Below, piece after piece: positions 10,801 to 63,718 of a stretch of 64,000 bases of DNA. This DNA comes from Pseudomonadota bacterium (GTDB taxonomy: Bacteria > Pseudomonadota > Gammaproteobacteria > Burkholderiales > SG8-39), in contig JAJZPQ010000001.1 in NCBI GenBank assembly GCA_021811085.1, forward strand, positions 81,428 through 145,427, given 5' to 3'. A program made the position numbers and the translations under genes. How positions within the stretch are numbered: position 1 is the first letter of the stretch; every line of letters starts with the position of its first letter. The notes under the pieces were generated by a model. It was given only the letters and a program-made list of their open reading frames with translations. It searched no databases and had not been told where the DNA came from.

Positions 10801-10832
10801 GGCGCGGACACTGTAATTTTGGGGAGCGGATT

Positions 10833-11600: not shown

Positions 11601-11669
11601 CGCGGCCGCGGGGGCGGCCGCAGGCCGATCCGGTTGCGTTTTGGTCCGGACGGGCCTAGAATTAGAACC

Positions 11670-12356
11670 ATGGTTCAAAATTCGAATTCGAGTTCAAACA
11701 AACCCGGCTCGGCGCGCGTGCGGCGCAAGAGCGAGGCGCGGCGCCTGGAAATCCTGCGCGCAGCGGCACGGGTATTCCGCCGCAGCGGCGTCGCCGCCGC
11801 GGGCATGCGCGATATCGCCGAAGAGGCGGACCTGTCGCCGGGCAATCTTTATTACTATTTCGCCGGCAAGGACGAACTGCTGTTCTTCTGCCAGGATCAG
11901 ACCGTAGACCGCATGCTGGAGGCGGCCGAGGCGGCACGCGCCTCGACCCTGCCCGTCGCGGACCAGCTGCGCGCCGTGATCCGCGCCCACCTGCACTACA
12001 CGCTGGAAGAACTCGAGGGCGCGACCGCCCACCTCGAAATCGATATGCTGGCGGAAGATCTGCGCCGGCCGCTGATCGAAAAGCGCGACAAATACGAGCA
12101 GGCGGTGCGCGCGCTGATTGCAAAAGGGATCAAGCGCGGTGAATTCGCGCCCTGCGATACTGCGCTGGTCGCGCGTGCCATACTCGGGGCGCTCAACTGG
12201 GCCTCGCGCTGGTACCGCCCCGACGGCAAGCAAAGCGTCAGCGCGATTGCGCAGGGGCTGGCCGATTACCTGGTGCGCGGCCTCGCCGGCCCGCCGAAAG
12301 CAAATCCGAATGCCAATACTGCGCCCGCGAGGGCGATATCCGGAGGTCAAACATGA
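11670..12356 (+). CDS. TetR family regulator (KstR2-like C-terminal domain)
   Basis: MRDIAEEADLSPGNLYYYFAGKDELL HTH; ILGALNWASRWYRPDG; start uncertain. Confidence 0.9.
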   Translation: MVQNSNSSSNKPGSARVRRKSEARRLEILRAAARVFRRSGVAAAGMRDIAEEADLSPGNLYYYFAGKDELLFFCQDQTVDRMLEAAEAARASTLPVADQLRAVIRAHLHYTLEELEGATAHLEIDMLAEDLRRPLIEKRDKYEQAVRALIAKGIKRGEFAPCDTALVARAILGALNWASRWYRPDGKQSVSAIAQGLADYLVRGLAGPPKANPNANTAPARAISGGQT

Positions 12357-47075: not shown

Positions 47076-47789
47076 ATGAACGTAAAAGCCGAGTCGAAGG
47101 CGCTTGAGCCGCTGCGGCCTCAGGCCGTTCCCGGTTACCTGCAGGAAACCTACTGGTGGGCCTACGTCCACCCGAACGCGGTGAGTTTTTTCGAGCGGCA
47201 GTGGCTGGTCAATCTGATTCTGTGGGGCAACTTCGCGCGGCTGCGCGACGCCGCGTTGGCGGAGCTCGGGCGCGAAGTTCCAGGGCGCACGCTGCAGGTC
47301 GCCTGCGTCTATGGCAATTTTACCGAGCATCTTGCTGCGCGCGTGGCTCCGGGCGGCCAGCTCGACGTCGTCGATGTGCTGCCGATCCAGTTGCGCAATC
47401 TGCGCCAGAAACTTTCGCCCTTGGCGCCGGTAACGCTGCACCAGTACGACTCGACTGCGCTTGGCTTCGAGGGCGCGAGCTTCGATCAGGCGATCGTGTT
47501 TTTTCTGTTGCACGAACAGCCGGCGGCGGCGCGCAGGCAGACGCTGCGCGAAGCGCTGCGGGTGGTCAAACCCGGCGGCAAGCTGGTGCTGGTCGATTAT
47601 CACCTGCCGCGCCGGCTGCATCCGCTGCGCTATCTGTTCCGGCCGGTGTTGCATGCGCTCGAGCCGTTCGCGCTCGATCTGTGGCGGCACGAGATCATGG
47701 AATGGCTGCCCGAGGGTGTGAGTGCGGCGCAGATACGCAAACAGACTTATTACGGCGGTCTCTATCAGAAGCTGGTGATCTCGGTGTAG
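47076..47789 (+). CDS. rquA: Rhodoquinone biosynthesis protein RquA
   Basis: VPGYLQETYWWAYVHP..V.FFERQWLVNLILWGN, LQVACVYG, FFLLHEQP are the characteristic RquA sequence. Confidence 0.9.
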   Translation: MNVKAESKALEPLRPQAVPGYLQETYWWAYVHPNAVSFFERQWLVNLILWGNFARLRDAALAELGREVPGRTLQVACVYGNFTEHLAARVAPGGQLDVVDVLPIQLRNLRQKLSPLAPVTLHQYDSTALGFEGASFDQAIVFFLLHEQPAAARRQTLREALRVVKPGGKLVLVDYHLPRRLHPLRYLFRPVLHALEPFALDLWRHEIMEWLPEGVSAAQIRKQTYYGGLYQKLVISV

Positions 47790-48347: not shown

Positions 48348-48776
48348 ATGAACACACGAATGGCAAGCGACGAAGTCACCGACGACATCGCCGCGATCGA
48401 GATGCATCGACAGGGTACCGAGCAGGAATCGGGACTGGTGATGGCGTGCAGCGAGGCGCTGCGCAAATTGCAGGCTTTGCTTGAACAGGAGAAAGAAGCC
48501 CTGCGCTTGCACGGTCAGGAATCGGTGCATGCGATCAATGTCGAAGTGGTGGCCAACGAAATCAAGCGCGTGCAGTCCATGACCGGCGGCAAAGGCCAGG
48601 GCGCAATGCCCAGAAATGCGAATGCGCGGCCGCGAGGGCAGCAGCCGCCGCGTCCGGAGAAAGCACATAATGCCCCGAGGAATCGCGGCCGCAGGACCAT
48701 GGGTCGCAGCGGTGGTCGCGGCGGTGGCCGCGGCGGCGGCGGTAACGGTGGCGGCGCGGGGCCCGGCGTTCGTTAG
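48348..48776 (+). CDS. Hypothetical protein with helical N-terminus and RGG-rich tail
   Basis: RBS GGAG; C-terminus GRSGGRGGGRGGGGNGGG. Confidence 0.65.
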   Translation: MNTRMASDEVTDDIAAIEMHRQGTEQESGLVMACSEALRKLQALLEQEKEALRLHGQESVHAINVEVVANEIKRVQSMTGGKGQGAMPRNANARPRGQQPPRPEKAHNAPRNRGRRTMGRSGGRGGGRGGGGNGGGAGPGVR

Positions 48777-48816
48777 TTCATTTTCATGTTCGCGCCGATA
48801 CCCTGCGGGAGCTTGC

Positions 48817-49371
48817 ATGTCTGAAACGATAGACCTGTGGCAGGCCGAGCACAGGCATTTTTCCCGGCTGCTGGATCTCCTGGAACGGCAGGTCGCTGCG
48901 TTCCACGCGGACAATCAGCCGAATTTCGAGCTGATGCTCGATCTCGTAAGCTATCTGCGTTACTTTCCGGATCGCTATCATCATCCGCGCGAAGACGTGG
49001 GGTTCGCGCGCATGGCCGAGCGCGAGCCGCAACTCAAACCCATGGTCGAGCAGCTGTTGCAGGAGCATCGGGTGATTGCCGCCGCGGGCAGCGAATTGCT
49101 CAAATACCTCGAACAAGTCGTGGACGATGTGGTGGTTGAGCGCGCCAAAGTGGAAGCCGCGGCCGCGACCTACCTGGTGTATTACCGCCGCCACCTCGCG
49201 CTGGAAGACCGCGACATCGTGCCGCGCGCGGAGCAGCTGTTGACTCCGGCGGACTGGGAGGCGGTCATGGCCGCGATTCCGCACGGCCCGGACCCGCTGT
49301 TCGGCGAAGACTTCGAGCCGCGCTATAAAGAATTGCGCCGCCAGATCGCACTCGAATCAAAAGAGGCCTGA
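48817..49371 (+). CDS. Hemerythrin-domain protein
   Basis: EHRHF, YHHPRED, LLQEH, HLALED His/Glu pattern. Confidence 0.88.
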   Translation: MSETIDLWQAEHRHFSRLLDLLERQVAAFHADNQPNFELMLDLVSYLRYFPDRYHHPREDVGFARMAEREPQLKPMVEQLLQEHRVIAAAGSELLKYLEQVVDDVVVERAKVEAAAATYLVYYRRHLALEDRDIVPRAEQLLTPADWEAVMAAIPHGPDPLFGEDFEPRYKELRRQIALESKEA

Positions 49372-49435: not shown

Positions 49436-50719
49436 ATGAATCCAAAACATGCATTGCCCTCCTATCTGGAACCGGCTGGCGTCGGCTCCTGGGGTGTGTT
49501 CCTGCAGCAGGTCGACCGCGTCGCAGCGTCCATGGGCGAACTTGCCTATCTGCTGGAGACGCTGAAGCGGCCCAAGCGCATCCTCATCGTCGACGTTCCG
49601 ATCAAGCGCGACGACGGCAGCGTCGCGCACTTCGAGGGCTATCGCGTGCAGCACAATGTCTCGCGTGGCCCGGGCAAGGGCGGCGTGCGTTTTCACCAGG
49701 ATGTCACGCTGTCCGAGGTGATGGCGCTCGCCGGCTGGATGAGCATCAAGAACGCGGTCATCGGCGTGCCCTTCGGCGGCGCCAAGGGCGGTGTGCGCGT
49801 CGACCCGCGCTTGCTGTCGCAACGCGAGCTCGAGCACCTGACCCGGCGCTATACCAGCGAGATCGGCATCGTCATCGGCCCGGACAAGGACATCCCGGCA
49901 CCCGATGTCAACACCAACGAAAAAATCATGGCCTGGATGATGGATACCTATTCCATCATGCACGGCGCGACTTCGACCGCGGTGGTCACGGGCAAACCGC
50001 TGTCGCTGGGCGGCAGCCGCGGGCGCCGCGACGCCACCGGGCGCGGCGTGTTCGTGTGCGGGCGCGTGGCCGCGGCCAAGATCGGCCTGCCCATCGCGGG
50101 CGCGCGCGTGTGCGTGCAGGGCTTCGGCAATGTCGGCAACGCCGCGGCGCGCTGTTTTGCCGAGGCCGGCGCCAAAGTGATCGCGGTGCAGACGGTAGAG
50201 GGTACGCTGCATGCTCCGTCAGGACTCGATGTCGCAAGGCTGGTCGCGCATCAGGACGCGCAGCGTCCGCTGGGCGAGTTTGCCGGTGCAACGATGATTC
50301 CGGATGCGGCATTCTGGGAAATCGAGTCGGAATTCCTGATTCCCGCTGCGCTGGAAAACCAGATCACTGACGCCAATGCCGGCCGGATACGCACGCGCGT
50401 GCTGCTCGAAGGGGCGAATGGCCCGACCACGCCGGAGGCCGACGATATCCTCGCCGCGAACGGCGTCGTGGTGGTGCCCGATGTGATCGCGAACGCCGGC
50501 GGCGTCACCGTGAGCTATTTCGAGTGGGTACAGGACATCTCCAGCTATTTCTGGTCCGAGGAAGAGGTCAACGGCAGGCTGGACAAAATCATGAGCGATG
50601 CTTTCAACGCGCTGTGGGAGGCCGCTACCGCGGCGCGCGTCACGCTGCGCACCTCGGCCTTCATCCTGGCCTGCCGGCGCATCCTCGAAGCGCGGCATTT
50701 GCGCGGCCTGTACCCTTAA
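49436..50719 (+). CDS. gdhA: Glutamate dehydrogenase (Glu/Leu/Phe/Val family)
   Basis: [50 protein letters not shown]. Confidence 0.9.
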
Positions 50720-50991
50720 GACGCGACTGCAGTAGGCGCAGGACGCAGCCCAAGCTGTCCTGCGAGGGTCTCCTTCCGCCGCGTTGCGCCATCGATGCGG
50801 CAATCTAAGTTCGTACCATCGAAGTGATCGGCCCAAACCCGAGACCGGACGCCGGCCCATCCCTACGCCCGCATCAGAACGCACGCGAGTAGCGCGCGTC
50901 TGGCGGTGCACGACCAATTTAGTCTGGAATTTCGCGGCGGCAACGGGCGTGAGCCAAGGTTCAATCCCGTGCAGGCAGAAACGCAGCGGGT

Positions 50992-51005
50992 TTGATCTAC
51001 ATCAA
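50992..51005. promoter_or_regulatory. Perfect FNR box upstream of mtrC-1
   Basis: TTGAT-CTAC-ATCAA; -10-like TAATCT at 51026-51031 (class II spacing). Confidence 0.8.
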
Positions 51006-51200
51006 ACCGCGTTTAGGTGCCACGGGTAATCTCCAGCTAGCATACTTATGGACTCAATGCAATTAGGGAAAACGTAGATAGGGTTAACGCTTATGCCGGT
51101 GGGGATGACGCAAATCGAGGTTCGGTCAACGTAGCAAATGGTCAAGGGCGCGACCCCATCCGGGGTCGCTCTAGCGGTTTCGCAAACGAGGGAGAAGCAG

Positions 51201-53936
51201 ATGAAATCCAAGCTTTTTAGATGGGGACTTACGGCCTTGATGGTCGGCACGCTGGCGGCCTGCGGCGGTGGAGGCGGCGGCGATACTACGGCTGCGGCTC
51301 CTGGCACCGGTACGGGCACGGGTGGCGGCACCACGACTACCACCACGCCGACCGTCGCGGTTCCGACCGGTACTTCGCCCGTGACCTTGACGGCCGCCAC
51401 CCCGGCGGCGACGTTCGCGGCGCTCACGCCGGCTGTACCGGCAGTCGCGGTGTCGATCAATAGCCCGCCCAAGGTCACCTTTTCGCTGACAGACGGCAAC
51501 GGCAACCCGATCATCGGTTTCGGGAGCAAATCGCAAAGCGCGACTGCAACGGTCGCGAGCTATCCCAACCTCGCCTTCGGCTTGGCCAAGCTGGTTCCCG
51601 GCGCGAACGGCGCCCCGAGCAAGTGGGTCAACTACATCGTGACCACGGTGCCGACCTATAAAAGCGCGACCGACAAGACCATCGTCCCTGCCGCCCCCAG
51701 AGGGCCGATCTACGACCGAGAAGGAACATTGGTCGACAACGGCAACGGCACTTATACCTACACTTTCTACCGCGACATCACCAAGGTCAAGGACGAGGTC
51801 GCGGCAGCCACGCTGACTGCACCCAACGTCGCGGCGGATCTGGGCGATCTGACCTTCGATCCGAATGCGGTTCACCGCCTGACCATCGAGATTTCCGGCT
51901 ACGCCCCGGGCACGGGCACCAACACTGCCGACGGCGTGCAAAAGACCGCCGGTGTTCGGATGGCAAATCCGGTCAACGTCATTTATGACTTCATCCCTGC
52001 CACCGGCAAAGCGGTGAGCGCCACGGATCCCTCGCGGGAAATCGTCGCGATTGCCAAGTGCAACGAGTGCCACGGCAAGCTCGCGATGCATGGGGCGGGG
52101 AAGATAGACACCAGATATTGCGTCGTTTGTCACACCGATCAGCGTAAATATGGCAGAAGTGAAGCGACGACCACTGCCACCGGCTATGACGCCACAAAGG
52201 GCACCTACCTGATCAATAGCATTACGATCGGCAACTTCCCCACCGAAATCCACAAAATTCACATGGGTAAGGAACTGACGAAGACCGGCTACAACTACGC
52301 CAACGTGCTGTTCAACGAAGTCACCTTTCCGCAGCCGATCACCAATTGCGTCAAATGCCATGATGGCTCGGCGACCTCTACCGCGAAGACCGCGAACGGC
52401 GACAACTGGAAGAGCGTGCCGACCCGGCTCGCCTGCGGCGCCTGCCACGACGGCATCAATTTCGCCACCGGCAAAGGCTTCACCTTGGCCGATGCGGCGG
52501 CGGGCAACACGACCAGTGTTGGCCACATCGGCGGCGCAAAAGCCGACGACAGCCAGTGCGCGCTGTGCCACGACGCAACGACCATCCCGGTCTACCATGT
52601 CACGGTCGATCCGACCGGCGCAAACGGCCGCGGCGGCTACCCGCTGAACACGGCAACGGACACGCCCACGGTGGGTTTCCCCGCGGGCCAAGGTCCTTCG
52701 ATCCCGCTCGCCTCGCAGCTCAATCTGCCGTCCGGCGTGTACAAGATCAATTTCGAGATCAAGCAGGTCACAGTCGCCGGTGCAGCCGGCGCCAAGAAAG
52801 CGACCGTCGTCTATCGCATCCTGAAAGACGGCCAGCCGGTGACCTTGAATGCGACCGGCAACCTGATCACCGGAGTCGATGGCTCGCCCGGCATCTATAT
52901 CGCCTACGCGACCGCGCAGGACGGCATCGCGGCTCCGGCCGATTGGAATGCGACCAAGAGCGCCTCAGTCAAGGCCATGCGCGACAAGACCGGCGGGAAC
53001 TCGCAGACCGGCCCGGACGCCAGCGGCTTCTACACCGCGACGCTGGGCGCCACCATCCCGGATGACGCGAAGATGGTCACGGCGGCAGTTGGCGTCGATT
53101 ACAACGGCTTCGTGCAACTGAATCATGCCGACTATCCGAAGGGCATCAGGCTGCGTGAGCCGCAATTCGTGATGAAAGTCGCGGATGGCTTCACGCCGCG
53201 CCGCAGCATCGTCGCCAACGCCAAGTGCAATCAGTGCCATGGTCAGCTGGGTATCAGCCCATCGTTCCATAGCGGTGCACGCAACAACGGCGAAGGCTGC
53301 GCAATTTGCCACGATGCCAACCGTGCTACGGGCCACGTCGGTGCAGCAAATGGCTTCGGCGGTGGCTGGTCGGTCGGCGTCAAGAGCCTGGTGCACTCTA
53401 TCCACGCGTCGTCCAAGCGCGAGCAGGCGTTCAGCTACGAAGCCACCGCGGCGAATCCGAACGGCTTCAAGGAAGTCACGTATCCGGGCATCCTGAAGAA
53501 CTGCGAAACCTGCCACGTGGCCGGTAGCTACGACTTCAGCGGGACGGCAAACAACGCCGCTCTGCCCTATCTGCTCTGGACCACAGAGGCGAAAGGGGAC
53601 ATGAGCAACCCGACGAACGCGGCTTCCATCGGGCTTTCACCTTGGGTGACGACCTTGGGCAAAGGGCAGATCGACTACAGGAGCGACAACCTAGTCAGCT
53701 CGCCGATCGCGTCGGCCTGTTTCGGTTGCCACGACAGCAGCCTCGCGGTTCAGCATATGCAGTCGAACGGCGGCACGCTCTATGCGCTGTTCTCGAGCGT
53801 ATCCTCGCTCGGCACCACTGCAGCGCGTCCGGCTGTTGGTACCGCTTCGACCATGACGTTCACGAAGAGCGAGCAGTGCACGCTGTGCCACCTGTCGGGC
53901 AAGGTGGCGGACATCAAGGCCATGCATGCGAAGTAA
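51201..53936 (+). CDS. mtrC: Decaheme OmcA/MtrC family outer-membrane cytochrome lipoprotein 1
   Basis: Lipobox LAAC; 10 CxxCH motifs in a 5+5 arrangement; IHKIH and VHSIH distal His motifs. Confidence 0.92.
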   Translation: MKSKLFRWGLTALMVGTLAACGGGGGGDTTAAAPGTGTGTGGGTTTTTTPTVAVPTGTSPVTLTAATPAATFAALTPAVPAVAVSINSPPKVTFSLTDGNGNPIIGFGSKSQSATATVASYPNLAFGLAKLVPGANGAPSKWVNYIVTTVPTYKSATDKTIVPAAPRGPIYDREGTLVDNGNGTYTYTFYRDITKVKDEVAAATLTAPNVAADLGDLTFDPNAVHRLTIEISGYAPGTGTNTADGVQKTAGVRMANPVNVIYDFIPATGKAVSATDPSREIVAIAKCNECHGKLAMHGAGKIDTRYCVVCHTDQRKYGRSEATTTATGYDATKGTYLINSITIGNFPTEIHKIHMGKELTKTGYNYANVLFNEVTFPQPITNCVKCHDGSATSTAKTANGDNWKSVPTRLACGACHDGINFATGKGFTLADAAAGNTTSVGHIGGAKADDSQCALCHDATTIPVYHVTVDPTGANGRGGYPLNTATDTPTVGFPAGQGPSIPLASQLNLPSGVYKINFEIKQVTVAGAAGAKKATVVYRILKDGQPVTLNATGNLITGVDGSPGIYIAYATAQDGIAAPADWNATKSASVKAMRDKTGGNSQTGPDASGFYTATLGATIPDDAKMVTAAVGVDYNGFVQLNHADYPKGIRLREPQFVMKVADGFTPRRSIVANAKCNQCHGQLGISPSFHSGARNNGEGCAICHDANRATGHVGAANGFGGGWSVGVKSLVHSIHASSKREQAFSYEATAANPNGFKEVTYPGILKNCETCHVAGSYDFSGTANNAALPYLLWTTEAKGDMSNPTNAASIGLSPWVTTLGKGQIDYRSDNLVSSPIASACFGCHDSSLAVQHMQSNGGTLYALFSSVSSLGTTAARPAVGTASTMTFTKSEQCTLCHLSGKVADIKAMHAK

Positions 53937-54018
53937 CAGCCTGACCGAAGTTTGGTCAGGCCAATAATGCCGGGGTGCGCTTAGGCGTGCCTCGGTACAA
54001 GTGGAGAAACACCGCAAT

Positions 54019-54059
54019 AAACGACCCGGGGCGGCAACGCTACCGGGTCGTTTCTTTTT
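54019..54059 (+). terminator. Intrinsic terminator after mtrC-1
   Basis: AAACGACCCGG...CCGGGTCGTTT stem followed by a T-run. Confidence 0.75.
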
Positions 54060-54379
54060 ATGACGCCATAAGCGGCTCTTGCGATCGATTTGCTCGGCAG
54101 CTGCGATGGCCTCGAGCAATCGGCCATCGTCAGGCAGATGGGAAATCCAAGAGGGGGTTCCCAATTTCGTTGAACGCGGCGATCAATACTGGTTTCTGAT
54201 CGAATAAGCTCCTGACGCGTAAGCGAGATTCGCGCTAGGGTGCCGGTGCGCCCAGATCACCGCGATGTCGTAAATGTGGGCGACCAAGGCAACGTTCGTC
54301 AAGTCGAGACCGAGCGTCAAATCGCCGTCGCGCGGATCCCATACGCGCTTTGTAGGCGCTCTTGCACCCAAACTGGCAT

Positions 54380-54393
54380 TTGATCCAGATCAA
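54380..54393. promoter_or_regulatory. Perfect FNR box upstream of mtrC-2
   Basis: TTGAT-CCAG-ATCAA; -10-like TACTTT at 54415-54420. Confidence 0.8.
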
Positions 54394-54531
54394 GATGGTT
54401 TGGTTCCAAAGATGTACTTTTACACAAAGCCATTTTGCGAAAAACCAGCCAGAGGCAGCCCTTGACCAGTTGCCCGCAGCGAACCCTGACCGAAATTCAT
54501 CATTTAACCTTGACCAGCTGAGGAGACCGAA

Positions 54532-57399
54532 GTGAAGATTCCTAACCTAATGAGCGAGAACAGGTCCACTTTACGGTGGATCAGTTGCGTCGCGGCGGGT
54601 CTGTTGACCGCCGCGCTAGCCGGTTGCGGCGGTGGCGGCGGAGGTGGCGACACCACGGCAGCCGCGGGCGGCACTGGCGGTACTACCACACCTCCTCCCA
54701 CAACTACGGTCACTGCGCCAGCGGGCGTACCGCAAAATGGAACCAACTCGGTTGCCGCCACTACGGCGACAACTGCAGCCTGGACGGCACTTTCGCCGCA
54801 GGTCACGGTGTCCAGCGTCACCATCAACAGTCCTCCCGTCGTCAAATTCACGGTTAAGGATGCCGCCGGCAATCCGGTAGTGGGACTGGGCAATAAGTCC
54901 CTGAACGCAAGCACGGGCATTGTCGGCCTGACCAACCTCGGTTTCACCCTGGCCAAGCTGGTGCCTGGCAGCAATGGTGCGCCGAGCAAGTGGGTCAACT
55001 ATCTGGTGTTTACCCCGGCAACCATTGCGCAGAAGACCGCCGTGCCCGCGACTGCGTCGTGCGATGCAGCGACCAATGCGACCTGGTGCGGCAGCTTTCC
55101 GACTTACGATAGGGAAGGCACGCTTATCGATTTCGGCGACGGCAGCTATCAATACACCTTCTACCGCAATCCCAAGGATGCGGCCACTATTGTCGCGAGC
55201 CTGATTGACTCCGCTGACGGCCTGTCGAAGAAAGCCGACCTTGGCGACGTGAGCTTCGATCCGACCGCGACCACCCGTCTGGGGATCCAGATCGGCGGCA
55301 TCGCTCCTGGCACAGGCACCAATTACGTTGACGCCACCACATTTGCGCCGATCTCCGGCGGTCCGGCCAGAGTTGATATGGTTAACCCCGCAAATCTCGT
55401 GTATGACTTCCGGCCCGATGGCGCAACGGTTGCGAACACGCGCAATGTGGTCACAGTCGATTCCTGCAGCGATTGCCATGCCGGGAAAGTGCTGAATCAC
55501 GTCAGCCGCAAGGACCCGAATTATTGCGCGACCTGCCACACCGACCAGATCAAGTACAGCTTCGATCAGGAAGCGCCCATGCTCGCGGACGGCATTACGT
55601 TCTCCGTGCAGACCGGAACGAATGCTCAGGTTCGCCCGAATCAGGCCGTCGTCAATGGCCGGGCCGTGGGTAACCTGCCCAATATGGTGCACAAGATTCA
55701 CATGGGCGAGGGCCTAGTCAAACAAGGCTATCACTACAACAACGACGACCTGGGCCTGTTCAACGAGGTCAAGTTCCCGCAGGATATCCGCAATTGCACC
55801 AAGTGCCACGACGGTTCTGCGAACGCAACGCACAAGACTGCCGACGGCGACAACTGGAAGAACGTCCCGAGCCGGCTCGCCTGCGGCGCCTGCCACGACG
55901 GCATCAACTTTGCGACGGGCAAAGGCATTACGCTCGAGGATGCAGCTTTGATCGCTCTGGGCAAAACCCCGACCGGCGTTGGCCACATCGGCGGTGCAAA
56001 AGCCGACGACAGCCAGTGCGTGCTGTGCCATGACGCAACGACGATTCCGGTGTACCACACCCCGGTGACCCCGATCGCTGCTTCGATCCAGATCAGCGGT
56101 GTCGCCAGCGGTTATACGAATGCGGCATCGGTCGCGGCCAATCAAAACAACCTGCCGACAGGCGCGATCAAAGTCACCTATGACGTGAAGAGCGTCGCGC
56201 GCAACACGAGCAAGCAGCCGGTGATTGTGTTCCGCATCCTGCAAAACGGCGCGCGCGCCGACTTCAATACCTATAGCGCCACCGGCAAGACGGAGCTGTG
56301 GGACAATTACGTCGGCTCGCCGAGTGCGTATTTCGTGTATGCGGTGCCGCAGGATGGCATTACCGCTCCAGCCGATTTCAACGTCTCCGCGTCCGCTTCC
56401 GTCAAACGTTTGTGGAATGGCACGGCGACCGGCACCAGCGCCGGCACGTTGACTGGTCCGGATTCGAACGGCTACTACACGGCAACGCTGACCGGCGTGG
56501 TGATTCCCGACAGCGCGGTGATGCTCACGGGCGGTATCGGATTCACCTACGACTTGCCGAACAATCCGCCGCTGACCCAGACCAATTTGTCTGACTATCC
56601 GTACAATACGACCAGCAAGATCGGCGGTCTCATCGTGGCGGCGCCTACGGCGCAACTGGTTGCAAGCTCAGGCGCCGCAACGGGCGGCACCGGCGGTGCC
56701 TATACGGGGCGCCGGCAGATCGTGGAAAGCGCGCGTTGCAACAAGTGCCACGAGAAACTGGGTGTGTTTACCGAGGAAGCCTTCCACGCCGGGCAGCGCA
56801 ACGACGCCAATACCTGCGCCTGGTGCCACCGGCCGAATCAAACCAGCAGCGGCTGGTCCGCGGATTCGGAAGTGTTCGTCCACGGTATCCACGCGGCGGA
56901 CAAGCGCAGTGTGCCGTTCACCTGGCATGCGACCGATCCGTCCGACAATTTCTCCAACATTGGCTATCCGGGCGTACTGAAGAAATGCGAAACCTGCCAC
57001 CTGCCGGGAACGTACGACTTCAGCGCGAGCGCGTCGGCCAGCGCTTTGCCGAATCGCTTGTACAGGACGGTGGCGACGGGCACGCTCGCTTCGACTGCAA
57101 GCAATGCGTTCACGTTCTCGCCTTACATTACCAAGGATAACAACTATGGCGCCGGCTTCACCTTTAACGCTGCTACCGGTGTCACCACTGCTGAAGCTGC
57201 AGGCACGACACTGGTGAACTCGCCGATCGCGGCAGCCTGCTTCTCCTGCCACGACACCGCTCTTGACAAGGACCACATTACGTCAAATGGCGGTTCGCTC
57301 TACGAAGCGCGCAGCACGGCGCTGGCCAAGACCGAGCAATGCACGCTGTGCCACCTGGCGGGCAAAGTGGCGGATATCAAGGTCATGCATGCGAAGTAA
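54532..57399 (+). CDS. mtrC: Decaheme OmcA/MtrC family cytochrome lipoprotein 2
   Basis: RBS GAGGAG and GTG start; lipobox LAGC; 10 CxxCH motifs. Confidence 0.92.
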   Translation: MKIPNLMSENRSTLRWISCVAAGLLTAALAGCGGGGGGGDTTAAAGGTGGTTTPPPTTTVTAPAGVPQNGTNSVAATTATTAAWTALSPQVTVSSVTINSPPVVKFTVKDAAGNPVVGLGNKSLNASTGIVGLTNLGFTLAKLVPGSNGAPSKWVNYLVFTPATIAQKTAVPATASCDAATNATWCGSFPTYDREGTLIDFGDGSYQYTFYRNPKDAATIVASLIDSADGLSKKADLGDVSFDPTATTRLGIQIGGIAPGTGTNYVDATTFAPISGGPARVDMVNPANLVYDFRPDGATVANTRNVVTVDSCSDCHAGKVLNHVSRKDPNYCATCHTDQIKYSFDQEAPMLADGITFSVQTGTNAQVRPNQAVVNGRAVGNLPNMVHKIHMGEGLVKQGYHYNNDDLGLFNEVKFPQDIRNCTKCHDGSANATHKTADGDNWKNVPSRLACGACHDGINFATGKGITLEDAALIALGKTPTGVGHIGGAKADDSQCVLCHDATTIPVYHTPVTPIAASIQISGVASGYTNAASVAANQNNLPTGAIKVTYDVKSVARNTSKQPVIVFRILQNGARADFNTYSATGKTELWDNYVGSPSAYFVYAVPQDGITAPADFNVSASASVKRLWNGTATGTSAGTLTGPDSNGYYTATLTGVVIPDSAVMLTGGIGFTYDLPNNPPLTQTNLSDYPYNTTSKIGGLIVAAPTAQLVASSGAATGGTGGAYTGRRQIVESARCNKCHEKLGVFTEEAFHAGQRNDANTCAWCHRPNQTSSGWSADSEVFVHGIHAADKRSVPFTWHATDPSDNFSNIGYPGVLKKCETCHLPGTYDFSASASASALPNRLYRTVATGTLASTASNAFTFSPYITKDNNYGAGFTFNAATGVTTAEAAGTTLVNSPIAAACFSCHDTALDKDHITSNGGSLYEARSTALAKTEQCTLCHLAGKVADIKVMHAK

Positions 57400-57472
57400 A
57401 GCGATCGAGGTTTGATCGTTGCAATGAAACCCGGGGCATGGCTAGCCATGCCCCGGAGCAAGCAGGACCAAG

Positions 57473-57510
57473 CGACCCGGGGCGGCGACGTCACCGGGTC
57501 GTGTTTTTTT
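57473..57510 (+). terminator. Intrinsic terminator after mtrC-2 (homologous to the mtrC-1 terminator)
   Basis: CGACCCGG-GGCGGCGACGTCA-CCGGGTCG followed by a T-run. Confidence 0.75.
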
Positions 57511-57532
57511 GGCAATCGCCCCATGCTTCGTG

Positions 57533-57561
57533 TTGACAAGGGGTCGTATGTTTCCTATAAA
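57533..57561 (+). promoter_or_regulatory. Near-consensus sigma70 promoter of the ComEA-like gene
   Basis: TTGACA (57533-57538), 17-bp spacer, TATAAA (57556-57561). Confidence 0.75.
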
Positions 57562-57593
57562 CGCTATTCGTATTCCATCTCGGGAGTTCTTTC

Positions 57594-57959
57594 ATGCAAA
57601 ACCGCATCATCAATTCCGTAGTGATTGCTCTCGCCTTGCTGCTGTCAGCGGGTGTTTCCGTGGCCGCCGAAAGCAAGGCAGGTACGCCGGCGGAAGCAAA
57701 GCCGGCCGCTAAGGCCAAAGCGCCCGAAAAGAACGCCAAGGCAAAACCTGCCAAGGCGGCCGCGAAAGTCAAACTCGTGGACATCAACAGCGCGAGCAAG
57801 GCGGAGCTGACGAAACTTCCGGGCATCGATGACGCGACGGCCGACAAGATCATCGCCGGCCGCCCGTACAACAGCAAAGCGCGCCTGGTCACAAACAAGA
57901 TCATTACGACGGGCACATACGGGAATATCAAGCACCTAATCATCGCCAAACAGAAGTGA
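57594..57959 (+). CDS. Exported ComEA-like helix-hairpin-helix protein
   Basis: Signal peptide, Ala/Lys linker, VDINSASKAELTKLPGI..A.KIIAGRPY. Confidence 0.85.
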   Translation: MQNRIINSVVIALALLLSAGVSVAAESKAGTPAEAKPAAKAKAPEKNAKAKPAKAAAKVKLVDINSASKAELTKLPGIDDATADKIIAGRPYNSKARLVTNKIITTGTYGNIKHLIIAKQK

Positions 57960-58228
57960 GTTCGGAGCGGGAAGTCAAGCCGGAATAATTCCAGAAAACG
58001 CAGTGACGCCGGCGTGTTGCTTGAATGCTGCGTTTATTTGCAAGATAAGCCAATCTGACATAGCATTCAGCGTGGTTTTTCGCTGTAGCGAGGCGGCTGC
58101 TGGACTTGGAGCTTTCGCAGGCTTTGCCAAGTCCCGGACGGTGTAGGGGCCGAGCGATTTGTGTAACGGGGACGCGCAAAGACTTTCTAAGCAGTGGGGG
58201 CAGCCAGTCCCCAAATAACGGGGTGGTC

Positions 58229-60544
58229 ATGAGAAAAAATCGATCGTCATACCAATGGATCGACGTTGTTCCGCGAGCCGGGGATATTGCTAGAGGTCTG
58301 GTGGCGGGTTTGCTGGCCCTCGTGCTGGCTGGCTGCGGGGGCGGTGGTGGCGGTGGCGGCAGCACAGGAACCGCGGCCGGTCCCGGATCGGCGACGGGCG
58401 GAGCGGCGGCGCTCGCCGCGTCCACGGCACTGAACATGACGATCACCAGTGTGACGATCAACAGTCCGCCGGTGGTGAATTTCACCGTTACCAACGAAGC
58501 GGGCGTAGGCATGGCCGGCCTCACTGCGGCAGATCTGCGCTTCAACATCGCCAAGCTGGTGCCGGGATCGAACGGCGGCCCGAGCACCTGGCAAAATTAC
58601 ATCAACCGCGCCAACGGCGGTGCGGTGCAGGGCACGCAGGAGCGTTCAGCTGCCGGCTACGCTTTCGGCACCTTGGCGAACAACGGCAACGGCAGCTATA
58701 CATATACCTTCGCTACCGACATCAAGACCGCTACTTGTCCTGCGCCGTGTACCGACGCCGACGGCAAGGCCCTCGATATCAGCTATCAACCGGGCCTGAC
58801 GCACCGGGTCACGATCCAACAGGCCAACAGCACCTATCCGAAGAGTGCTGGGGTATACGATTTCGTGCCCTCTGGCGCCACGCTAACAACGACGCGCGAT
58901 ATCGTCTCCAACGCCAAATGCAACGCCTGCCATAGTCAGCTGAGCGCGCATGGCACGCGCGTCGACACCAAATTGTGCGTTACCTGCCATAACCCGGGCT
59001 CCTGGGTTGCCGGAGCGCCCAATACGCCTGTGGATTTCAAGGTAATGATCCACAAGATTCACGATGGCGACGCATTGCCGAGCGTGCTCGCCGGCACGCC
59101 GTATGTGGTCAACGGAACCAATTTCTCCTCGGTCGCGTTCCCGCAGGATGTGCGCAACTGCACCAAGTGCCATGACGGTACTCCGGGTGCGGCGAATGCA
59201 ACCGCGCAGGGCGATAACTGGAAAATGCAACCGAGCATGGAGGCCTGCGGCGCCTGCCACGACGATGTCTACTTCGGTACAAAGCCGGATCCGGCCAAAC
59301 CGTATCAGACGGTGGTGCACCCCGGCGGCGTGCAGACCGATAACAGCGCTTGCTCGACGTGCCACACGGCGGGCAAGTTTCCGGACGCCAAGGATATTAT
59401 CGTGGCGCATAACTTCCCGACACGCTTCAAGGCGGCATCGGCGAAATTCCAGTACAACATTATCAGCGTCACACCGACGACGGCAGGTTCGAAGCCGGTC
59501 GTCACGTTCTCGGTCACGGATCCGACCAACGGCGACAAGCCCTACGACCTCAAAGCCGATCCGGCTTTCACGGCCACGGCAAGCGGCACGAGCCGACTGG
59601 CGGTCAGCATCGGCTGGAGTACAACGGACTTCGGCAACAGCAGCAGCGGCCAGAAATACGGCCAACCGATCAGCATCGACGCCCTGGCAACTTCGGTCGC
59701 CGGTGCCGCGGCCGGGACCTATACCGTGACTTCTCCGGTCGCGGTTCCCGCGGCGCAGACCGGCACGCTGCGTGTCACCATCGATGGCCACCCCGCGGGC
59801 GATGTCACCACGGCGGGAACGTTTACCGACCGGTTGAAAGTCAGGAGCGTGTTCAAGGATGCTGCGATCACTGGCAGCGTAACGGCGCGCCGGGTAGTCG
59901 TGGACGTCGCCAAATGCGACGTTTGCCATGGCGTGCTGAGTCTGCACGGAAATAATCGCACCGACGAGCCGAGTGTATGCGTTGTCTGCCACAATCCGGA
60001 TGCGACCGATGCGGGCCGGCGTCCGGCTACATTGGGCGTGCTCACCGGCGGTGTGGACGGCAAGCTGGAGGAGTCGATCGACTTCAAGAGGATGATCCAC
60101 GCGATCCATGCGGGACAAGCGAGCAACGGCGGATTCCGCACCAAGGGCATCGTCGTATATGGCTTCGGCGGCAGCGTGAACGACTTCAGCAAAGTCGTGT
60201 TCCCCGGAAAGCTGAACGATTGCTCGGTCTGCCATGCCGGCACTTCGTATCAATTGACGGGTACCTGGGCGGCGCCCGTGGCCAACGGCGTTGCCGGAAG
60301 CACCATCAGCACGGGCGCTTCTGCGACTGATCCTGCGGATAACCTGAGAATCACGCCCACCGCGGCGGTGTGCTCGTCGTGTCATGACAGCGCGGTAGCG
60401 CAGACGCACATGCAGGACAGCTTCAATGCCGGCAACTTCTCGGCGACGCAGGCGACCATCAAGGCTGCCGCGCCGGAAGCTTGCACCTTCTGCCACGGGC
60501 CGGGTAAAGCGCTCGACGTTCAGACGGTGCACGGTGTACAGTAA
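58229..60544 (+). CDS. mtrC: Decaheme OmcA/MtrC family cytochrome lipoprotein 3
   Basis: Lipobox LAGC; 10 CxxCH motifs; MIHKIH and MIHAIH. Confidence 0.92.
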   Translation: MRKNRSSYQWIDVVPRAGDIARGLVAGLLALVLAGCGGGGGGGGSTGTAAGPGSATGGAAALAASTALNMTITSVTINSPPVVNFTVTNEAGVGMAGLTAADLRFNIAKLVPGSNGGPSTWQNYINRANGGAVQGTQERSAAGYAFGTLANNGNGSYTYTFATDIKTATCPAPCTDADGKALDISYQPGLTHRVTIQQANSTYPKSAGVYDFVPSGATLTTTRDIVSNAKCNACHSQLSAHGTRVDTKLCVTCHNPGSWVAGAPNTPVDFKVMIHKIHDGDALPSVLAGTPYVVNGTNFSSVAFPQDVRNCTKCHDGTPGAANATAQGDNWKMQPSMEACGACHDDVYFGTKPDPAKPYQTVVHPGGVQTDNSACSTCHTAGKFPDAKDIIVAHNFPTRFKAASAKFQYNIISVTPTTAGSKPVVTFSVTDPTNGDKPYDLKADPAFTATASGTSRLAVSIGWSTTDFGNSSSGQKYGQPISIDALATSVAGAAAGTYTVTSPVAVPAAQTGTLRVTIDGHPAGDVTTAGTFTDRLKVRSVFKDAAITGSVTARRVVVDVAKCDVCHGVLSLHGNNRTDEPSVCVVCHNPDATDAGRRPATLGVLTGGVDGKLEESIDFKRMIHAIHAGQASNGGFRTKGIVVYGFGGSVNDFSKVVFPGKLNDCSVCHAGTSYQLTGTWAAPVANGVAGSTISTGASATDPADNLRITPTAAVCSSCHDSAVAQTHMQDSFNAGNFSATQATIKAAAPEACTFCHGPGKALDVQTVHGVQ

Positions 60545-60585: not shown

Positions 60586-61563
60586 ATGAAACTCAAGAAA
60601 CCATTATTTGCAGCGCTGCTACTGTTGTCTGGTTTTGCGTTCAGCGCCGCCGCGGAGGATAAGCCTGCGGCGAAGGCCGCCGAGCCGCCGCCGGCGCCGA
60701 TGAGCATGGGCACGGAATACACCGAGAAGGGCGCCGACACCTGCCTGCAGTGCCACGTCGAGGGCGGCGATTTTCCGGTGTACGAGATTTTCAAGACCAA
60801 GCACGGCAATCGCGCCGACAAGCGCACGCCCTTTGCCCCCGGGCACTTGCAATGCGAGGCCTGCCACGGCCCGGGCAAGAAGCATGCCGATAACGGCGGC
60901 GGCCCGGACGGCATCAACAGCCAGAAGCGCACTTCCTTCCTGACACCGCAGCAGCGCAACAAGTATTGCCTGGCATGCCACCAGAATGGCGCGCGCACCG
61001 GCTGGATCGCGAGCACGCACGACGCGAACAATGTCGCCTGCAGCGATTGCCACAAGATCCATGCCGAGCGCGATCCTGTGCTCACGAAAGCGACCCAACC
61101 GGATGTCTGCTACAAATGCCACAAGAAGGAACGCGCGGACTTTTCCAAGCCGTCGGCGCACCCGGTTCGATTCGGCACCATGACTTGCAGCGACTGCCAC
61201 GCGCCGCATGGCGCGAATACGGCTGCCTTGCTGGTAAAGCCGACCGTGAATCAGACCTGCTACACCTGCCACGCGGAAAAGCGCGGGCCCTTCCTGTGGG
61301 AGCATGCGCCGGTGGCGGAGGACTGCACCTTGTGCCATTACCCGCACGGCTCGGTCAATCAATGGCGGCTGAAGAAGAATCCGCCGCTGCTGTGCCAGCA
61401 GTGCCATTCGGTGGCAGGGCACCCGTCAGTCGCGCGCACCAGCGCCTCGTTGCCTGGAGGCGCAGGCGGCGGGCAGGCCTTCCTGCTCGCAGGCAGCTGC
61501 CTCAATTGCCATTCGCAGATACACGGTTCGAACCATCCGTCCGGATATAAGCTGATGCGCTAG
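60586..61563 (+). CDS. mtrA: Decaheme periplasmic cytochrome, MtrA/DmsE family
   Basis: Signal peptide; 10 CxxCH motifs; EKRGPFLWEHAPV and HGSNHPSG. Confidence 0.95.
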   Translation: MKLKKPLFAALLLLSGFAFSAAAEDKPAAKAAEPPPAPMSMGTEYTEKGADTCLQCHVEGGDFPVYEIFKTKHGNRADKRTPFAPGHLQCEACHGPGKKHADNGGGPDGINSQKRTSFLTPQQRNKYCLACHQNGARTGWIASTHDANNVACSDCHKIHAERDPVLTKATQPDVCYKCHKKERADFSKPSAHPVRFGTMTCSDCHAPHGANTAALLVKPTVNQTCYTCHAEKRGPFLWEHAPVAEDCTLCHYPHGSVNQWRLKKNPPLLCQQCHSVAGHPSVARTSASLPGGAGGGQAFLLAGSCLNCHSQIHGSNHPSGYKLMR

Positions 61564-61624: not shown

Positions 61625-63718
61625 ATGAAGACCTCAAATCAACTGCTACTGCTAGGCGTGCTGTCGGCGCTGTCATCGGCGACAGCGGCCGCGGCCGACG
61701 GCGCTGCCGCTGTCGATACCTCGCAGTGGAAATGCGAGTCCTGCAAATTCGAGCAGGGGGTCAGCGGGACGCTGGACGTGGGGGCGGGGACGGTTTCGGA
61801 CAAGTCGGCCGAATTCGGCCAATACAACGGCCTGCAAAAGAAAGGTGGATTTTTCATCGGCGGCGCCTCGGTGCGCTCGCGCGGCGCGGACGGAACCTAC
61901 TGGAATCTCGATGCATCGAATCTCGGCCTGGACACGCGCTCCGTCGATGCCGAGGGCGGAAAGCAGGGCAGTTATAAGCTGCGGCTGAAGTATGACGAGA
62001 CGCCGCACCGCATCTGGGACGGTGCGCTGACGCCTTTCGCCGGCAGCGGCGGCGCGTCGCTGACCCTGCCCGCAGGTTTCGCCGCGGCCACGACCGCCGG
62101 CATGCCTTTGGCCGGCCAGCTCAACCAGGTCGACCTGGCCACGCAAAGAAAGCAAGTGGGCGTGGGCGGATCCTGGATCCCCAACACGAACTGGGAATAC
62201 GCATTCAATTATCGCCACGAGACGCGCGATGGCAACAAGGCGACGGCCGGCTCGTTCTTCGTCAATTCCACCCAGCTGATCGAACCCACGGACTATGTGA
62301 CCGATCAGGTGGACGCATCCGCTTCCTACGCCAGCAAGAAATTTCAGCTGAAATTTGCCTATTACGGATCGAAGTTCACCAACAGCAACCACTCGTTGAC
62401 TTGGGCTGACCCCTACGGTACGGCCGCTTTTCTTGGGACGTTTCCCGGCGCTGCCGCTGGTCAGCTGGCGCTGCCGCCGGACAATCAATTTCATCAGGTC
62501 TCGGCCACAGCCGGATACCAGATCAGCGACAAGACGCGATTCAGCGGCGACATCGCTATAGGCCGCATGACGCAGAACGACAGCTTCCTTCCGTATGGCA
62601 CCGCTGTTCCGGGCCCAGGCGGTTCGCTGAATGGCAGGGCGAAGACCTTGGACGCAGGCCTGAAACTCAGTTCGGCCGTCACCGATCGGCTGCGGCTGAA
62701 CGCGGCGTATACGCATAACGATCGCGACAACGAGACGCCGCAATCGCTCTACGCGGTAATATCGACCGATATGTTTCCCGGGGCGCCCAGAACGAATCTG
62801 CCCTACAGCTTCAAGCAGGATAAATTGAAGTTGAGCGCCGATTACCGGGTCTCGGAGCGCCTGCGCGGCGCGGTGGGTGCGGATTTCGATTCGCACAAGC
62901 GCACCTATGCGGAAGTCGATACGACGCACGAGAACACGGCCTGGGGCAAGGTCACTTCGAGTCTGACGGACAAGATCGACCTGACGTTGAAGCTCGCACA
63001 TGGCGAGCGCAGGAATTCGGGCACGTTCCAGCCGATCGCCGGGATTACGCCGCCCGAGAATCCGCTGCTCAGACGATTCAATCTGGCGAATCGCACGCGG
63101 GATACGGTGGGCCTGCGCGGTGACTTTACGCCGATGGAACGCCTCAGCATCGGACTCGGACTGGATACGTCCGAGGACAAATACGCCGATTCAACGATCG
63201 GTCTGACCAACGCCAAGGATTACAATTTGAACGGCGACGTGTCGCTGGTCGTGTCGGAGCGCACCAATTTGCGGCTTTTCGCGATTCATCAAGAGATCAA
63301 GTCGAAACAAGCCGGCAGCCAGACATTTTCAGTCCCCGATTGGTTTGCCGACAACAAGGATACGATCGATACGTTCGGCCTTGGCATAAAGCATGCAGCA
63401 ATCAAGGACAAGCTCGACATCGGCGCGGACTGGAGCGCCTCGCGCTCGCGCAGCCAGATCGACGTCAGCACCGGCGTCTCGAATCCGGCCTTCCCCGACA
63501 TCAGGGCTAAACTGGATACGCTGAAGCTCTACGCCACGTATCGCCTGAAGGAGAGCATGTCGCTGCAGGCGGGCTACTGGATCGAACGCTATAGCACTCA
63601 GGACTGGATGCTGGACAACGTTGTGCCCAGCACCATCCCCAATGTCCTGACCATGGGACTGCAGGCGCCGCAGTACCACGTGAACGTTCTGAGCCTGGCG
63701 CTGAGGTACAAGTTCTAG
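61625..63718 (+). CDS. mtrB: MtrB/PioB family outer-membrane beta-barrel
   Basis: Signal peptide; N-terminal CxxC (WKCESC); LPPDNQFHQ; C-terminal aromatic residue (RYKF). Confidence 0.93.
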   Translation: MKTSNQLLLLGVLSALSSATAAAADGAAAVDTSQWKCESCKFEQGVSGTLDVGAGTVSDKSAEFGQYNGLQKKGGFFIGGASVRSRGADGTYWNLDASNLGLDTRSVDAEGGKQGSYKLRLKYDETPHRIWDGALTPFAGSGGASLTLPAGFAAATTAGMPLAGQLNQVDLATQRKQVGVGGSWIPNTNWEYAFNYRHETRDGNKATAGSFFVNSTQLIEPTDYVTDQVDASASYASKKFQLKFAYYGSKFTNSNHSLTWADPYGTAAFLGTFPGAAAGQLALPPDNQFHQVSATAGYQISDKTRFSGDIAIGRMTQNDSFLPYGTAVPGPGGSLNGRAKTLDAGLKLSSAVTDRLRLNAAYTHNDRDNETPQSLYAVISTDMFPGAPRTNLPYSFKQDKLKLSADYRVSERLRGAVGADFDSHKRTYAEVDTTHENTAWGKVTSSLTDKIDLTLKLAHGERRNSGTFQPIAGITPPENPLLRRFNLANRTRDTVGLRGDFTPMERLSIGLGLDTSEDKYADSTIGLTNAKDYNLNGDVSLVVSERTNLRLFAIHQEIKSKQAGSQTFSVPDWFADNKDTIDTFGLGIKHAAIKDKLDIGADWSASRSRSQIDVSTGVSNPAFPDIRAKLDTLKLYATYRLKESMSLQAGYWIERYSTQDWMLDNVVPSTIPNVLTMGLQAPQYHVNVLSLALRYKF

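Follow-up and report, generated by a model that had tools for sequence, protein, structure and literature searches.

A single Mtr conduit with three, probably interchangeable, MtrC cytochromes under apparently split transcriptional control in a freshwater betaproteobacterium

Why do many mtr gene clusters hold several mtrC genes for each outer-membrane conduit? Extracellular electron transfer is far less studied in the Betaproteobacteria than in Shewanella. One to four extra mtrC genes are counted in 44% of all mtrCAB clusters (Baker et al. 2022, mBio, PMC8805035). The question is raised by a 64-kb stretch of DNA (here called the window) from a freshwater betaproteobacterium whose genome (4.48 Mb in 148 contigs) is 98% complete. 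Our analysis suggests that one Mtr conduit is probably served by three interchangeable surface cytochromes placed under split transcriptional control.

Three tandem mtrC paralogues were found upstream of the sole mtrA and mtrB genes, which adjoin each other, with all genes of the cluster in the same orientation (Table 1). Each paralogue matched the TIGR03507 profile over its full length (positions 2/3 to 672; 593 bits for mtrC-1, 449 for mtrC-2 and 521 for mtrC-3, against a cut-off of 209). Their products are lipoproteins (lipoboxes LAAC, LAGC and LAGC) whose ten CXXCH motifs are arranged 5+5; the mtrA product likewise has ten haems. In the 98%-complete genome, the profile cut-offs were exceeded by just three MtrC, a single MtrA and a single MtrB. 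Thus, the claim of the first-pass annotation that three paralogues accompany a single conduit held, and the additional mtrAB copy that it had considered as a possible partner for mtrC-1 and mtrC-2 was not found elsewhere in this genome; neither were additional cytochromes found downstream of mtrB. The AlphaFold2 model of MtrC-2 was too poor (mean pLDDT 52) to judge the family's four-domain fold (barrel, pentahaem, barrel, pentahaem) by; nonetheless, all 13 of its Foldseek hits in the PDB at E <= 1e-3 were MtrC, OmcA or MtrF, the best being 6qyc (8e-20; TM 0.48-0.53). Recent gene conversion between mtrC-1 and mtrC-2 was rejected, as identity at third codon positions stays at 0.5-0.7 throughout and no tract is nearly identical. 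Recent tandem duplication was rejected too: the two products share 43% identity, and for both of them closer relatives occur in other genomes.

Table 1. Features of the mtr locus, in window coordinates.
Feature	Coordinates	Strand	Description
FNR-type box TTGATCTACATCAA	50992..51005	+	Perfect; upstream of mtrC-1; equivalents precede clade-X mtrC genes of relatives
-10-like hexamer TAATCT	51027..51032	+	21 nt past the mtrC-1 box; predicted transcription start near 51039
mtrC-1	51201..53936	+	Decahaem lipoprotein, clade X; 60-residue Gly/Thr/Ala/Pro tether behind the lipid-anchored Cys
Three-hairpin 3' module of mtrC-1	53939..54060	+	Last hairpin (54019-54053) and U-run form a predicted intrinsic terminator
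FNR-type box TTGATCCAGATCAA	54380..54393	+	Perfect; upstream of mtrC-2
-10-like hexamer TACTTT	54415..54420	+	21 nt past the mtrC-2 box
mtrC-2	54532..57399	+	Decahaem lipoprotein, clade X; GTG start behind GAGGAG; 61-residue tether
Three-hairpin 3' module of mtrC-2	57400..57510	+	Terminator stem 57472-57502, then U-run
Sigma-70-type promoter TTGACA-17-TATAAA	57533..57561	+	Upstream of the HhH gene; read from sequence, partly conserved in relatives
Exported helix-hairpin-helix (HhH) protein	57594..57959	+	121 aa; signal peptide, Lys/Ala-rich linker, HHH_3 domain
Promoter-like block TTGCAA-17-TAGCAT	58038..58066	+	Directly upstream of mtrC-3; conserved
mtrC-3	58229..60544	+	Core decahaem lipoprotein; 36-residue tether
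mtrA	60586..61563	+	Periplasmic decahaem cytochrome; TIGR03508, 300 bits (cut-off 192)
mtrB	61625..63718	+	Outer-membrane barrel, MtrB/PioB family; TIGR03509, 542 bits (cut-off 240)

Gene layout and content of this kind have already been published; what appears to be new is the regulatory wiring and the docking prediction. Baker et al. 2022 (PMC8805035) describe betaproteobacterial "Group 3" clusters with extra "Group 4-type" mtrC genes and the same order as here (accessory mtrC, HhH, core mtrC, mtrA, mtrB), and explicitly note the HhH gene. The term FNR is absent from that paper, and FNR boxes, class II spacing, the three-hairpin module and the core promoter were not found described in its accessible text. 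A further precedent is Georgfuchsia toluolica G5G6, placed by nearest hits in the same bacterial family. According to its proteome study (Atashgahi et al. 2021, PMC9290046), which contains no promoter analysis, this organism has one mtrCAB and three further decahaem MtrC homologues, the extra genes lying about 15 genes away and being described as one operon. In the present locus, by contrast, two accessory mtrC genes stand directly upstream of the core unit, each with what appear to be its own promoter and terminator.

Do the two accessory proteins dock on the conduit themselves? The phylogenetic tree reproduced two separate MtrC clades, as in Baker et al. 2022, and placed MtrC-1 and MtrC-2 in a fast-evolving clade of their own (clade X; SH-aLRT 90-95), apart from Shewanella OmcA, MtrF and MtrC. 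Verified OmcA references (4lmh, E ~1e-300) clustered with Shewanella MtrC and MtrF, and a sequence search of the PDB matched MtrC-1 and MtrC-2 to neither OmcA nor UndA. The idea that these proteins might be OmcA orthologues was therefore not borne out. All three paralogues share the haem-4/5 block GDNWK..P..ACGACHD.I/V.F...H.GG..D(D/N)S.C..CH, whose NW, IDF and DNS features are, at the level of motif comparison, common to Shewanella MtrC and MtrF and absent from OmcA. The solved structure of MtrCAB shows MtrC in contact with MtrAB, and hydrogen-bonded to it, through the region around haem C5 (Edwards et al. 2020, PMC7198977). Moreover, some clusters (arranged Cx-HhH-MtrAB, with no core mtrC) encode no MtrC other than a close relative of MtrC-2. 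Retention of the MtrC-type block, together with the occurrence of these relatives as sole MtrC, favours alternative caps over pure relays; from these sequence features, MtrC-1 and MtrC-2 most likely plug into MtrAB themselves. The MtrAB of loci lacking a core mtrC is more divergent (43-46% MtrB identity), and docking as it occurs there may not transfer to the present MtrAB.

A rather doubtful alternative is that MtrC-3 alone docks, with MtrC-1 and MtrC-2 held at the periphery on their long tethers (some 60 residues, against 36 in MtrC-3), where they would take over electrons from MtrC-3 and, under anoxia, enlarge the reactive surface. This is consistent with the distance correlations, by which MtrC-3 co-evolves with MtrA and MtrB (r ~0.7, compared with 0.95 between MtrA and MtrB) and the accessory proteins do not (only ~0.07). 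It would also agree with the situation in Shewanella oneidensis, whose omcA-mtrCAB cluster likewise places several surface decahaems on one MtrAB conduit, and where PomcA is more active anaerobically and PmtrC aerobically (Kasai et al. 2015, PMC4417206), a split resembling the one described below, although it is governed by CRP instead of FNR. Against it stand the position of both proteins outside the OmcA/UndA clade, their MtrC-type haem-5 block and the clusters served by a MtrC-2-type protein only. Hence, of the analogy with OmcA drawn in the first-pass annotation, the regulatory split stood, while orthology and the haem-5 region spoke against it.

Turning to regulation, the perfect FNR-type box TTGAT-N4-ATCAA occurs only twice in the window, before mtrC-1 and before mtrC-2; these two are among 21 perfect copies in the 4.48-Mb genome. 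Both boxes had been proposed earlier, and they proved to be conserved in relatives. Boxes allowing one mismatch at most precede 15 of 23 clade-X genes and none of the 18 core mtrC genes of composite loci, a pattern repeated in further genomes of the family. The interval between mtrC-2 and mtrC-3 contained no FNR match with two mismatches or fewer. In loci without a core mtrC, the Cx genes have no FNR box nearby. Of the 15 boxes listed, about 13 have a TAnnnT-type hexamer 21-22 nt further on. Class II FNR promoters have their palindrome centred some 41.5 bp ahead of the transcription start, about 22 nt before the -10 motif. The mtrC-1 and mtrC-2 boxes fit this geometry, which would make both genes FNR-dependent if transcription begins at the predicted starts. 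The genome encodes an FNR protein with Cys31/34/40/122 and an ETVSR helix (NF008365, 252 bits; cut-off 228), and a perfect box lies between the divergent fnr and hemN genes (TIGR00538, 579 bits for hemN).

The 3' ends of the accessory genes are equally distinctive. Compared with shuffled sequences, the regions following mtrC-1 and mtrC-2 gave folding z-scores of -7.7 and -5.4, respectively. The terminator stem measures 9-11 bp; its loop is of the GNRA type, reading GCGA behind mtrC-2 and GCAA both behind mtrC-1 and in the majority of relatives. All three hairpins are conserved in the alignment of relatives (A1), with compensatory changes at 12 of 26 pairs, and a scan of positions 50700-58300 against Rfam matched the modules to no known RNA family. 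Box, spacing and hairpins recur at orthologous genes in many betaproteobacterial MAGs, and never before the core mtrC of clusters of this kind. The GC-rich stem-loop, the U-run and their conservation are those of intrinsic terminators, as the first-pass annotation had supposed for both genes, and transcription would be expected to stop there.

The HhH gene lies between mtrC-2 and mtrC-3, a position conserved in relatives. Its product scored 36.6 bits against Pfam HHH_3 (cut-off 27); identification as ComEA was rejected (TIGR01259, 27.6 bits; cut-off 152). This gene, its promoter and the promoter of mtrC-3 were all omitted from the first-pass annotation. The distances of the HhH protein correlate with those of MtrA and MtrB (~0.65), so that it co-varies here with MtrAB and not with the accessory mtrC genes, a point of difference from Baker et al. 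2022. Before core mtrC, a TTGCAA-17-TAGnAT block with the same 17-nt spacing is found in 9 of 13 composite loci. Inspection of the core promoter by eye for Fur- and CRP-like sites yielded nothing convincing. Neither the region 3' of the HhH gene (folding z -0.2) nor the gaps separating mtrC-3 from mtrA (41 bp) and mtrA from mtrB (61 bp) contained a stable structure. The tight spacing, the absence of an FNR box and the conservation in relatives support a core mtrC-3-mtrA-mtrB unit, as originally proposed.

Could the FNR promoters nonetheless induce the whole cluster, the terminators acting as partial attenuators within a nested polycistron that would yield a high MtrC:MtrAB ratio? The genes are all co-oriented and, in gammaproteobacterial clusters with a single mtrC, an FNR box precedes the core mtrC, which places the entire operon under FNR control. 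Still, such read-through seems improbable given the very stable hairpins and U-runs behind mtrC-1 and mtrC-2, conserved through compensatory changes, and the independent, conserved sigma-70-type promoters before the HhH gene and mtrC-3; furthermore, the core proteins of Georgfuchsia are reported as constitutive (PMC9290046).

The genome also encodes two Cys-less Crp/Fnr paralogues of the Dnr/Nnr type with the same E--SR recognition helix as FNR; the TTGAT-N4-ATCAA box could be a target of these as well, in which case the signal may be NO rather than oxygen. That a Dnr/NnrR-type regulator reads the boxes and ties MtrC-1 and MtrC-2 to denitrification (e.g. nitrate-coupled Fe(II)/Mn(II) oxidation), with electrons flowing inward, would suit the bidirectional Mtr homologues of some Betaproteobacteria (Baker et al. 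2022, PMC8805035) but is very improbable, as the classical fnr-hemN pair carries the same perfect box and the extra MtrCs of Georgfuchsia are prominent under Fe(III)-reducing conditions (PMC9290046).

We thus favour split control of one conduit with three caps. The mtrC-3, mtrA and mtrB genes would be transcribed from sigma-70-type promoters devoid of an FNR site, one before the HhH gene and one directly before mtrC-3. In turn, mtrC-1 and mtrC-2 would constitute self-contained cassettes, each made of a class II FNR promoter (with the centre of its box some 41 bp before the predicted start), the gene and three hairpins, the last one an intrinsic terminator. Upon a drop in oxygen, the four-Cys FNR protein would turn on both cassettes, adding the two long-tethered decahaem lipoproteins to the cell surface. 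There, they would cap MtrAB directly, rather than merely take electrons from MtrC-3.

More tentatively, and with some doubt, we suggest that the unit formed by FNR promoter, mtrC and three hairpins is an exchangeable module shuffled among lineages, allowing caps to be switched or mixed under anoxia on a fixed MtrAB instead of adding an OmcA-like relay. Shuffling of cassettes would decouple accessory mtrC from MtrAB evolution; a looser association would explain just as well why Cx does not co-evolve with MtrAB.

These findings bear on the question of why many mtr clusters hold several mtrC genes per conduit. The conserved regulatory logic, with a core cap lacking FNR control and accessory caps bearing class II FNR promoters and strong predicted terminators, offers a directly testable handle, and the haem-5 docking block of the accessory proteins predicts that they are able to replace the core cap. 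If they do, the way in which surface cytochrome diversity is read from metagenomes would change. If caps are indeed switched, the substrates served by a single conduit would be tuned by condition.

Profile searches of the whole source genome (a 4.48 Mb assembly, 98% complete, in which the window is contig C115) yielded exactly three MtrC and one each of MtrA and MtrB above cut-off. Therefore, the ratio of three surface cytochromes to one MtrAB conduit, proposed in the first-pass annotation, is real; an additional mtrAB pair serving mtrC-1 and mtrC-2 was not found above cut-off in this 98%-complete genome. The products of the three mtrC genes (C1, C2 and C3) matched the NCBIfam OmcA/MtrC family TIGR03507 over the full length of the profile (593, 449 and 521 bits, respectively; cut-off 209 bits). 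The gaps previously noted between mtrC-3 and mtrA (41 bp) and between mtrA and mtrB (61 bp) were confirmed, and no cytochrome genes were found downstream of mtrB.

Features of the mtr region (window coordinates)
Feature	Position	Strand	Remarks
rquA (rhodoquinone biosynthesis methyltransferase)	47076-47789	+	NF038261, 307 bits (cut-off 175)
Hemerythrin-domain gene	48616-49371		between rquA and mtrC-1
Glutamate dehydrogenase gene	49436-50719		between rquA and mtrC-1
FNR box, mtrC-1 promoter	50992-51005		perfect TTGAT-N4-ATCAA palindrome; motif search
mtrC-1	51201-53936	+	ten CXXCH, lipobox; ORF open from 51138
Three-hairpin 3' module, mtrC-1	53939-54060		in the alignment of 3' modules
FNR box, mtrC-2 promoter	54380-54393		perfect TTGAT-N4-ATCAA palindrome; motif search
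mtrC-2	54532-57399	+	ten CXXCH, lipobox
Three-hairpin 3' module, mtrC-2	57400-57510		in the alignment of 3' modules
Near-consensus promoter, TTGACA-17-TATAAA	57533-57561		upstream of HhH gene
HhH gene (121 aa)	57594-57959	+	signal peptide, Lys/Ala-rich linker, Pfam HHH_3; between mtrC-2 and mtrC-3
Promoter-like block, TTGCAA-17-TAGCAT	58038-58066		immediately upstream of mtrC-3
mtrC-3	58229-60544	+	ten CXXCH, lipobox; ORF open from 58106
mtrA	60586-61563	+	ten haem motifs; TIGR03508 match
mtrB	61625-63718	+	TIGR03509 and Pfam MtrB_PioB matches

The identity between C1 and C2 is 43%, versus about 27-35% between either protein and C3. Among solved structures, the best sequence match of all three was MtrF (3pmq), most strongly for C3, and none matched the OmcA or UndA structures. 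In a maximum-likelihood tree of 83 MtrC-family proteins, including Shewanella references verified as OmcA and MtrF, C1 and C2 fell within a supported clade made up of accessory genes only, C3 within a clade of mtrA-adjacent (core) genes, and Shewanella MtrC, MtrF and OmcA formed a third group. Orthology of the accessory paralogs with OmcA, to which they were likened on first reading, was thus not supported. The closest relatives of C1 and of C2 lie in other genomes rather than in each other, and no trace of gene conversion between the two was seen; they are either old paralogs or were acquired separately. The closest MtrA proteins came from MAGs labelled Sterolibacterium (90%), Georgfuchsia (79%) and Burkholderiales/Betaproteobacteria. 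In a sample of 60 genomes from the same family, several had two to four tandem mtrC genes with a single mtrB, among them one genome of the same genus with four copies.

The predicted FNR boxes of mtrC-1 and mtrC-2 proved to be perfect palindromes, the only two in the window out of 21 in the genome, with a spacing kept in relatives. The reported lack of a box at mtrC-3 also held, as the interval between mtrC-2 and mtrC-3 contains no match with two or fewer mismatches. A third perfect box occupies the intergenic region between the divergent fnr and hemN genes (NF008365, 252 bits; TIGR00538, 579 bits). The fnr product has Cys31/34/40/122 and an ETVSR recognition helix, and the two genes with their shared box are a classical FNR pair. 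The boxes could alternatively be read by two Cys-less Dnr-like paralogs present in the same genome. Hexamers resembling −10 motifs (TAATCT for mtrC-1, TACTTT for mtrC-2) each begin 21 nt past the box; with transcription starts inferred from this spacing, the box would lie near −41, in class II FNR geometry. Of the 15 boxes listed from the window and related loci, about 13 were followed by a TAnnnT-type hexamer at a distance of 21-22 nt. When boxes with at most one mismatch were counted within 450 bp upstream of genes in loci fetched around MtrA homologues, they preceded 15 of the 23 C1/C2-clade genes versus 0 of 18 core mtrC genes in composite clusters (accessory mtrC, HhH, core mtrC, mtrA, mtrB). 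This accessory-only pattern was repeated in four further genomes of the family. Six loci (L042, L044, L045, L054, L056 and L057) combine an accessory-type mtrC with HhH, mtrA and mtrB and have no core-type mtrC; no box was found within 450 bp upstream in any of them. At L044, however, a perfect box occurs 1.2 kb upstream, and the operon of this locus may thus begin further upstream.

Other FNR-like sites were noted. rquA, 3.4 kb upstream of mtrC-1, has one-mismatch boxes on either side (46915 and 47812). On contig C71 (about 10300-11900, minus strand), outside the window, a gene 65 bp downstream of a perfect box encodes a 538-aa protein in which one N-terminal CXXCH is followed by a long C-terminal part rich in beta structure. 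From its sequence this protein, for which NCBIfam gave no match, resembles a Cyc2-type cytochrome-porin fusion.

Three strong hairpins follow the stop codons of mtrC-1 (126 nt, z −7.7 versus shuffles) and mtrC-2 (113 nt, z −5.4). The last combines a 9-11 bp GC-rich stem, a GNRA-type loop (GCAA and GCGA, respectively) and a U-run, and is conserved in relatives, bearing out the terminators proposed for both genes. The module also lies behind orthologous genes in 11 other loci; all three helices are kept in the consensus fold, with compensatory double changes in 12 of 26 pairs, and no Rfam family matches it. Its nucleotide sequence is conserved, whereas the accessory proteins are only about 50% identical; it could be an mRNA stabiliser, a source of 3'-derived small RNA or a site at which cassettes are exchanged by recombination. 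Short, frame-broken minus-strand ORF pieces, which may be a degraded gene remnant, lie in the 320 bp that separate the mtrC-1 terminator from the mtrC-2 box (54060-54390).

Missing from the first-pass annotation was a gene for a predicted exported helix-hairpin-helix (HhH) protein, whose position is kept in many relatives. The protein scores under the ComEA cut-off; its gene is the sole ComEA-like one in the genome, the one other HHH_3 match lying inside an 820-aa frame. Folding revealed no stable RNA structure downstream of it. The promoter-like block before mtrC-3, also previously missed, recurs in 9 of 13 composite loci with its spacing unchanged. Given putative promoters before both the HhH gene and mtrC-3, the core unit would have its own FNR-independent promoters. 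The spacer and −10 of the mtrC-3 promoter overlap with a conserved block, ATCTGAnnTAGnATT, after which comes a conserved GGTTTT...GCTGCGYAGCGGCTG stretch (58044-58110 region); this region may be an operator or 5'-UTR element.

How the accessory cytochromes contact the conduit was judged from three indirect lines of evidence. In MtrC, the surroundings of haem C5 are conserved within the MtrC clade and form hydrogen bonds to MtrAB (Edwards et al. 2020, PMC7198977). The haem 3-5 block is the best-conserved part between C1 and C2 (80-85% identity), and also between accessory and core clades; alignment with the Shewanella proteins showed it to be of the MtrC/MtrF type in C1, C2 and C3 but not in OmcA. 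Secondly, the C2 subclade includes proteins that act as the only MtrC, in clusters of accessory mtrC, HhH, mtrA and mtrB. Both observations speak against a pure relay, in which accessory MtrCs would not dock on MtrAB themselves. The third line favours it: across ten composite loci, distance-matrix correlations, which are confounded by paralog replacement, were 0.95 for MtrA-MtrB and about 0.7 for C3 with MtrA/B, versus about 0.07 (none) for the accessory gene beside HhH, which evolved nearly twice as fast. On balance a pure relay seems less likely, and we tentatively prefer accessory MtrCs as alternative caps predicted to dock on MtrAB. The C2 monomer model was poor (pLDDT 52); in structure comparison it matched MtrC, OmcA and MtrF significantly, and nothing else. 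HhH divergence tracked MtrA/MtrB (r about 0.65) and not the preceding accessory mtrC; therefore, the HhH protein may functionally belong to the core conduit unit.

Baker et al. (2022, PMC8805035) report that 44% of mtrCAB clusters carry one to four extra mtrC genes, that in Group 3 Betaproteobacteria a core mtrC occurs alongside Group 4-type copies, and that behind these copies lies a conserved HhH gene; FNR is nowhere mentioned in the paper. Thus, the gene content is already known. In Georgfuchsia, three extra MtrC ranked with the proteins of highest abundance under Fe(III) (Atashgahi et al. 2021, PMC9290046). In Shewanella, omcA and mtrC are each driven by their own promoter, and the two promoters respond to oxygen in opposite ways (Kasai et al. 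2015, PMC4417206); both are CRP-dependent, whereas FNR-type boxes mark the accessory mtrC genes here. The conserved FNR cassette, terminator module, core promoter and docking-block argument are modest additions. Since boxes are often found directly before the mtrC of gammaproteobacterial single-mtrC clusters as well, FNR control of Mtr seems to be widespread and, in composite clusters, restricted to the accessory genes.
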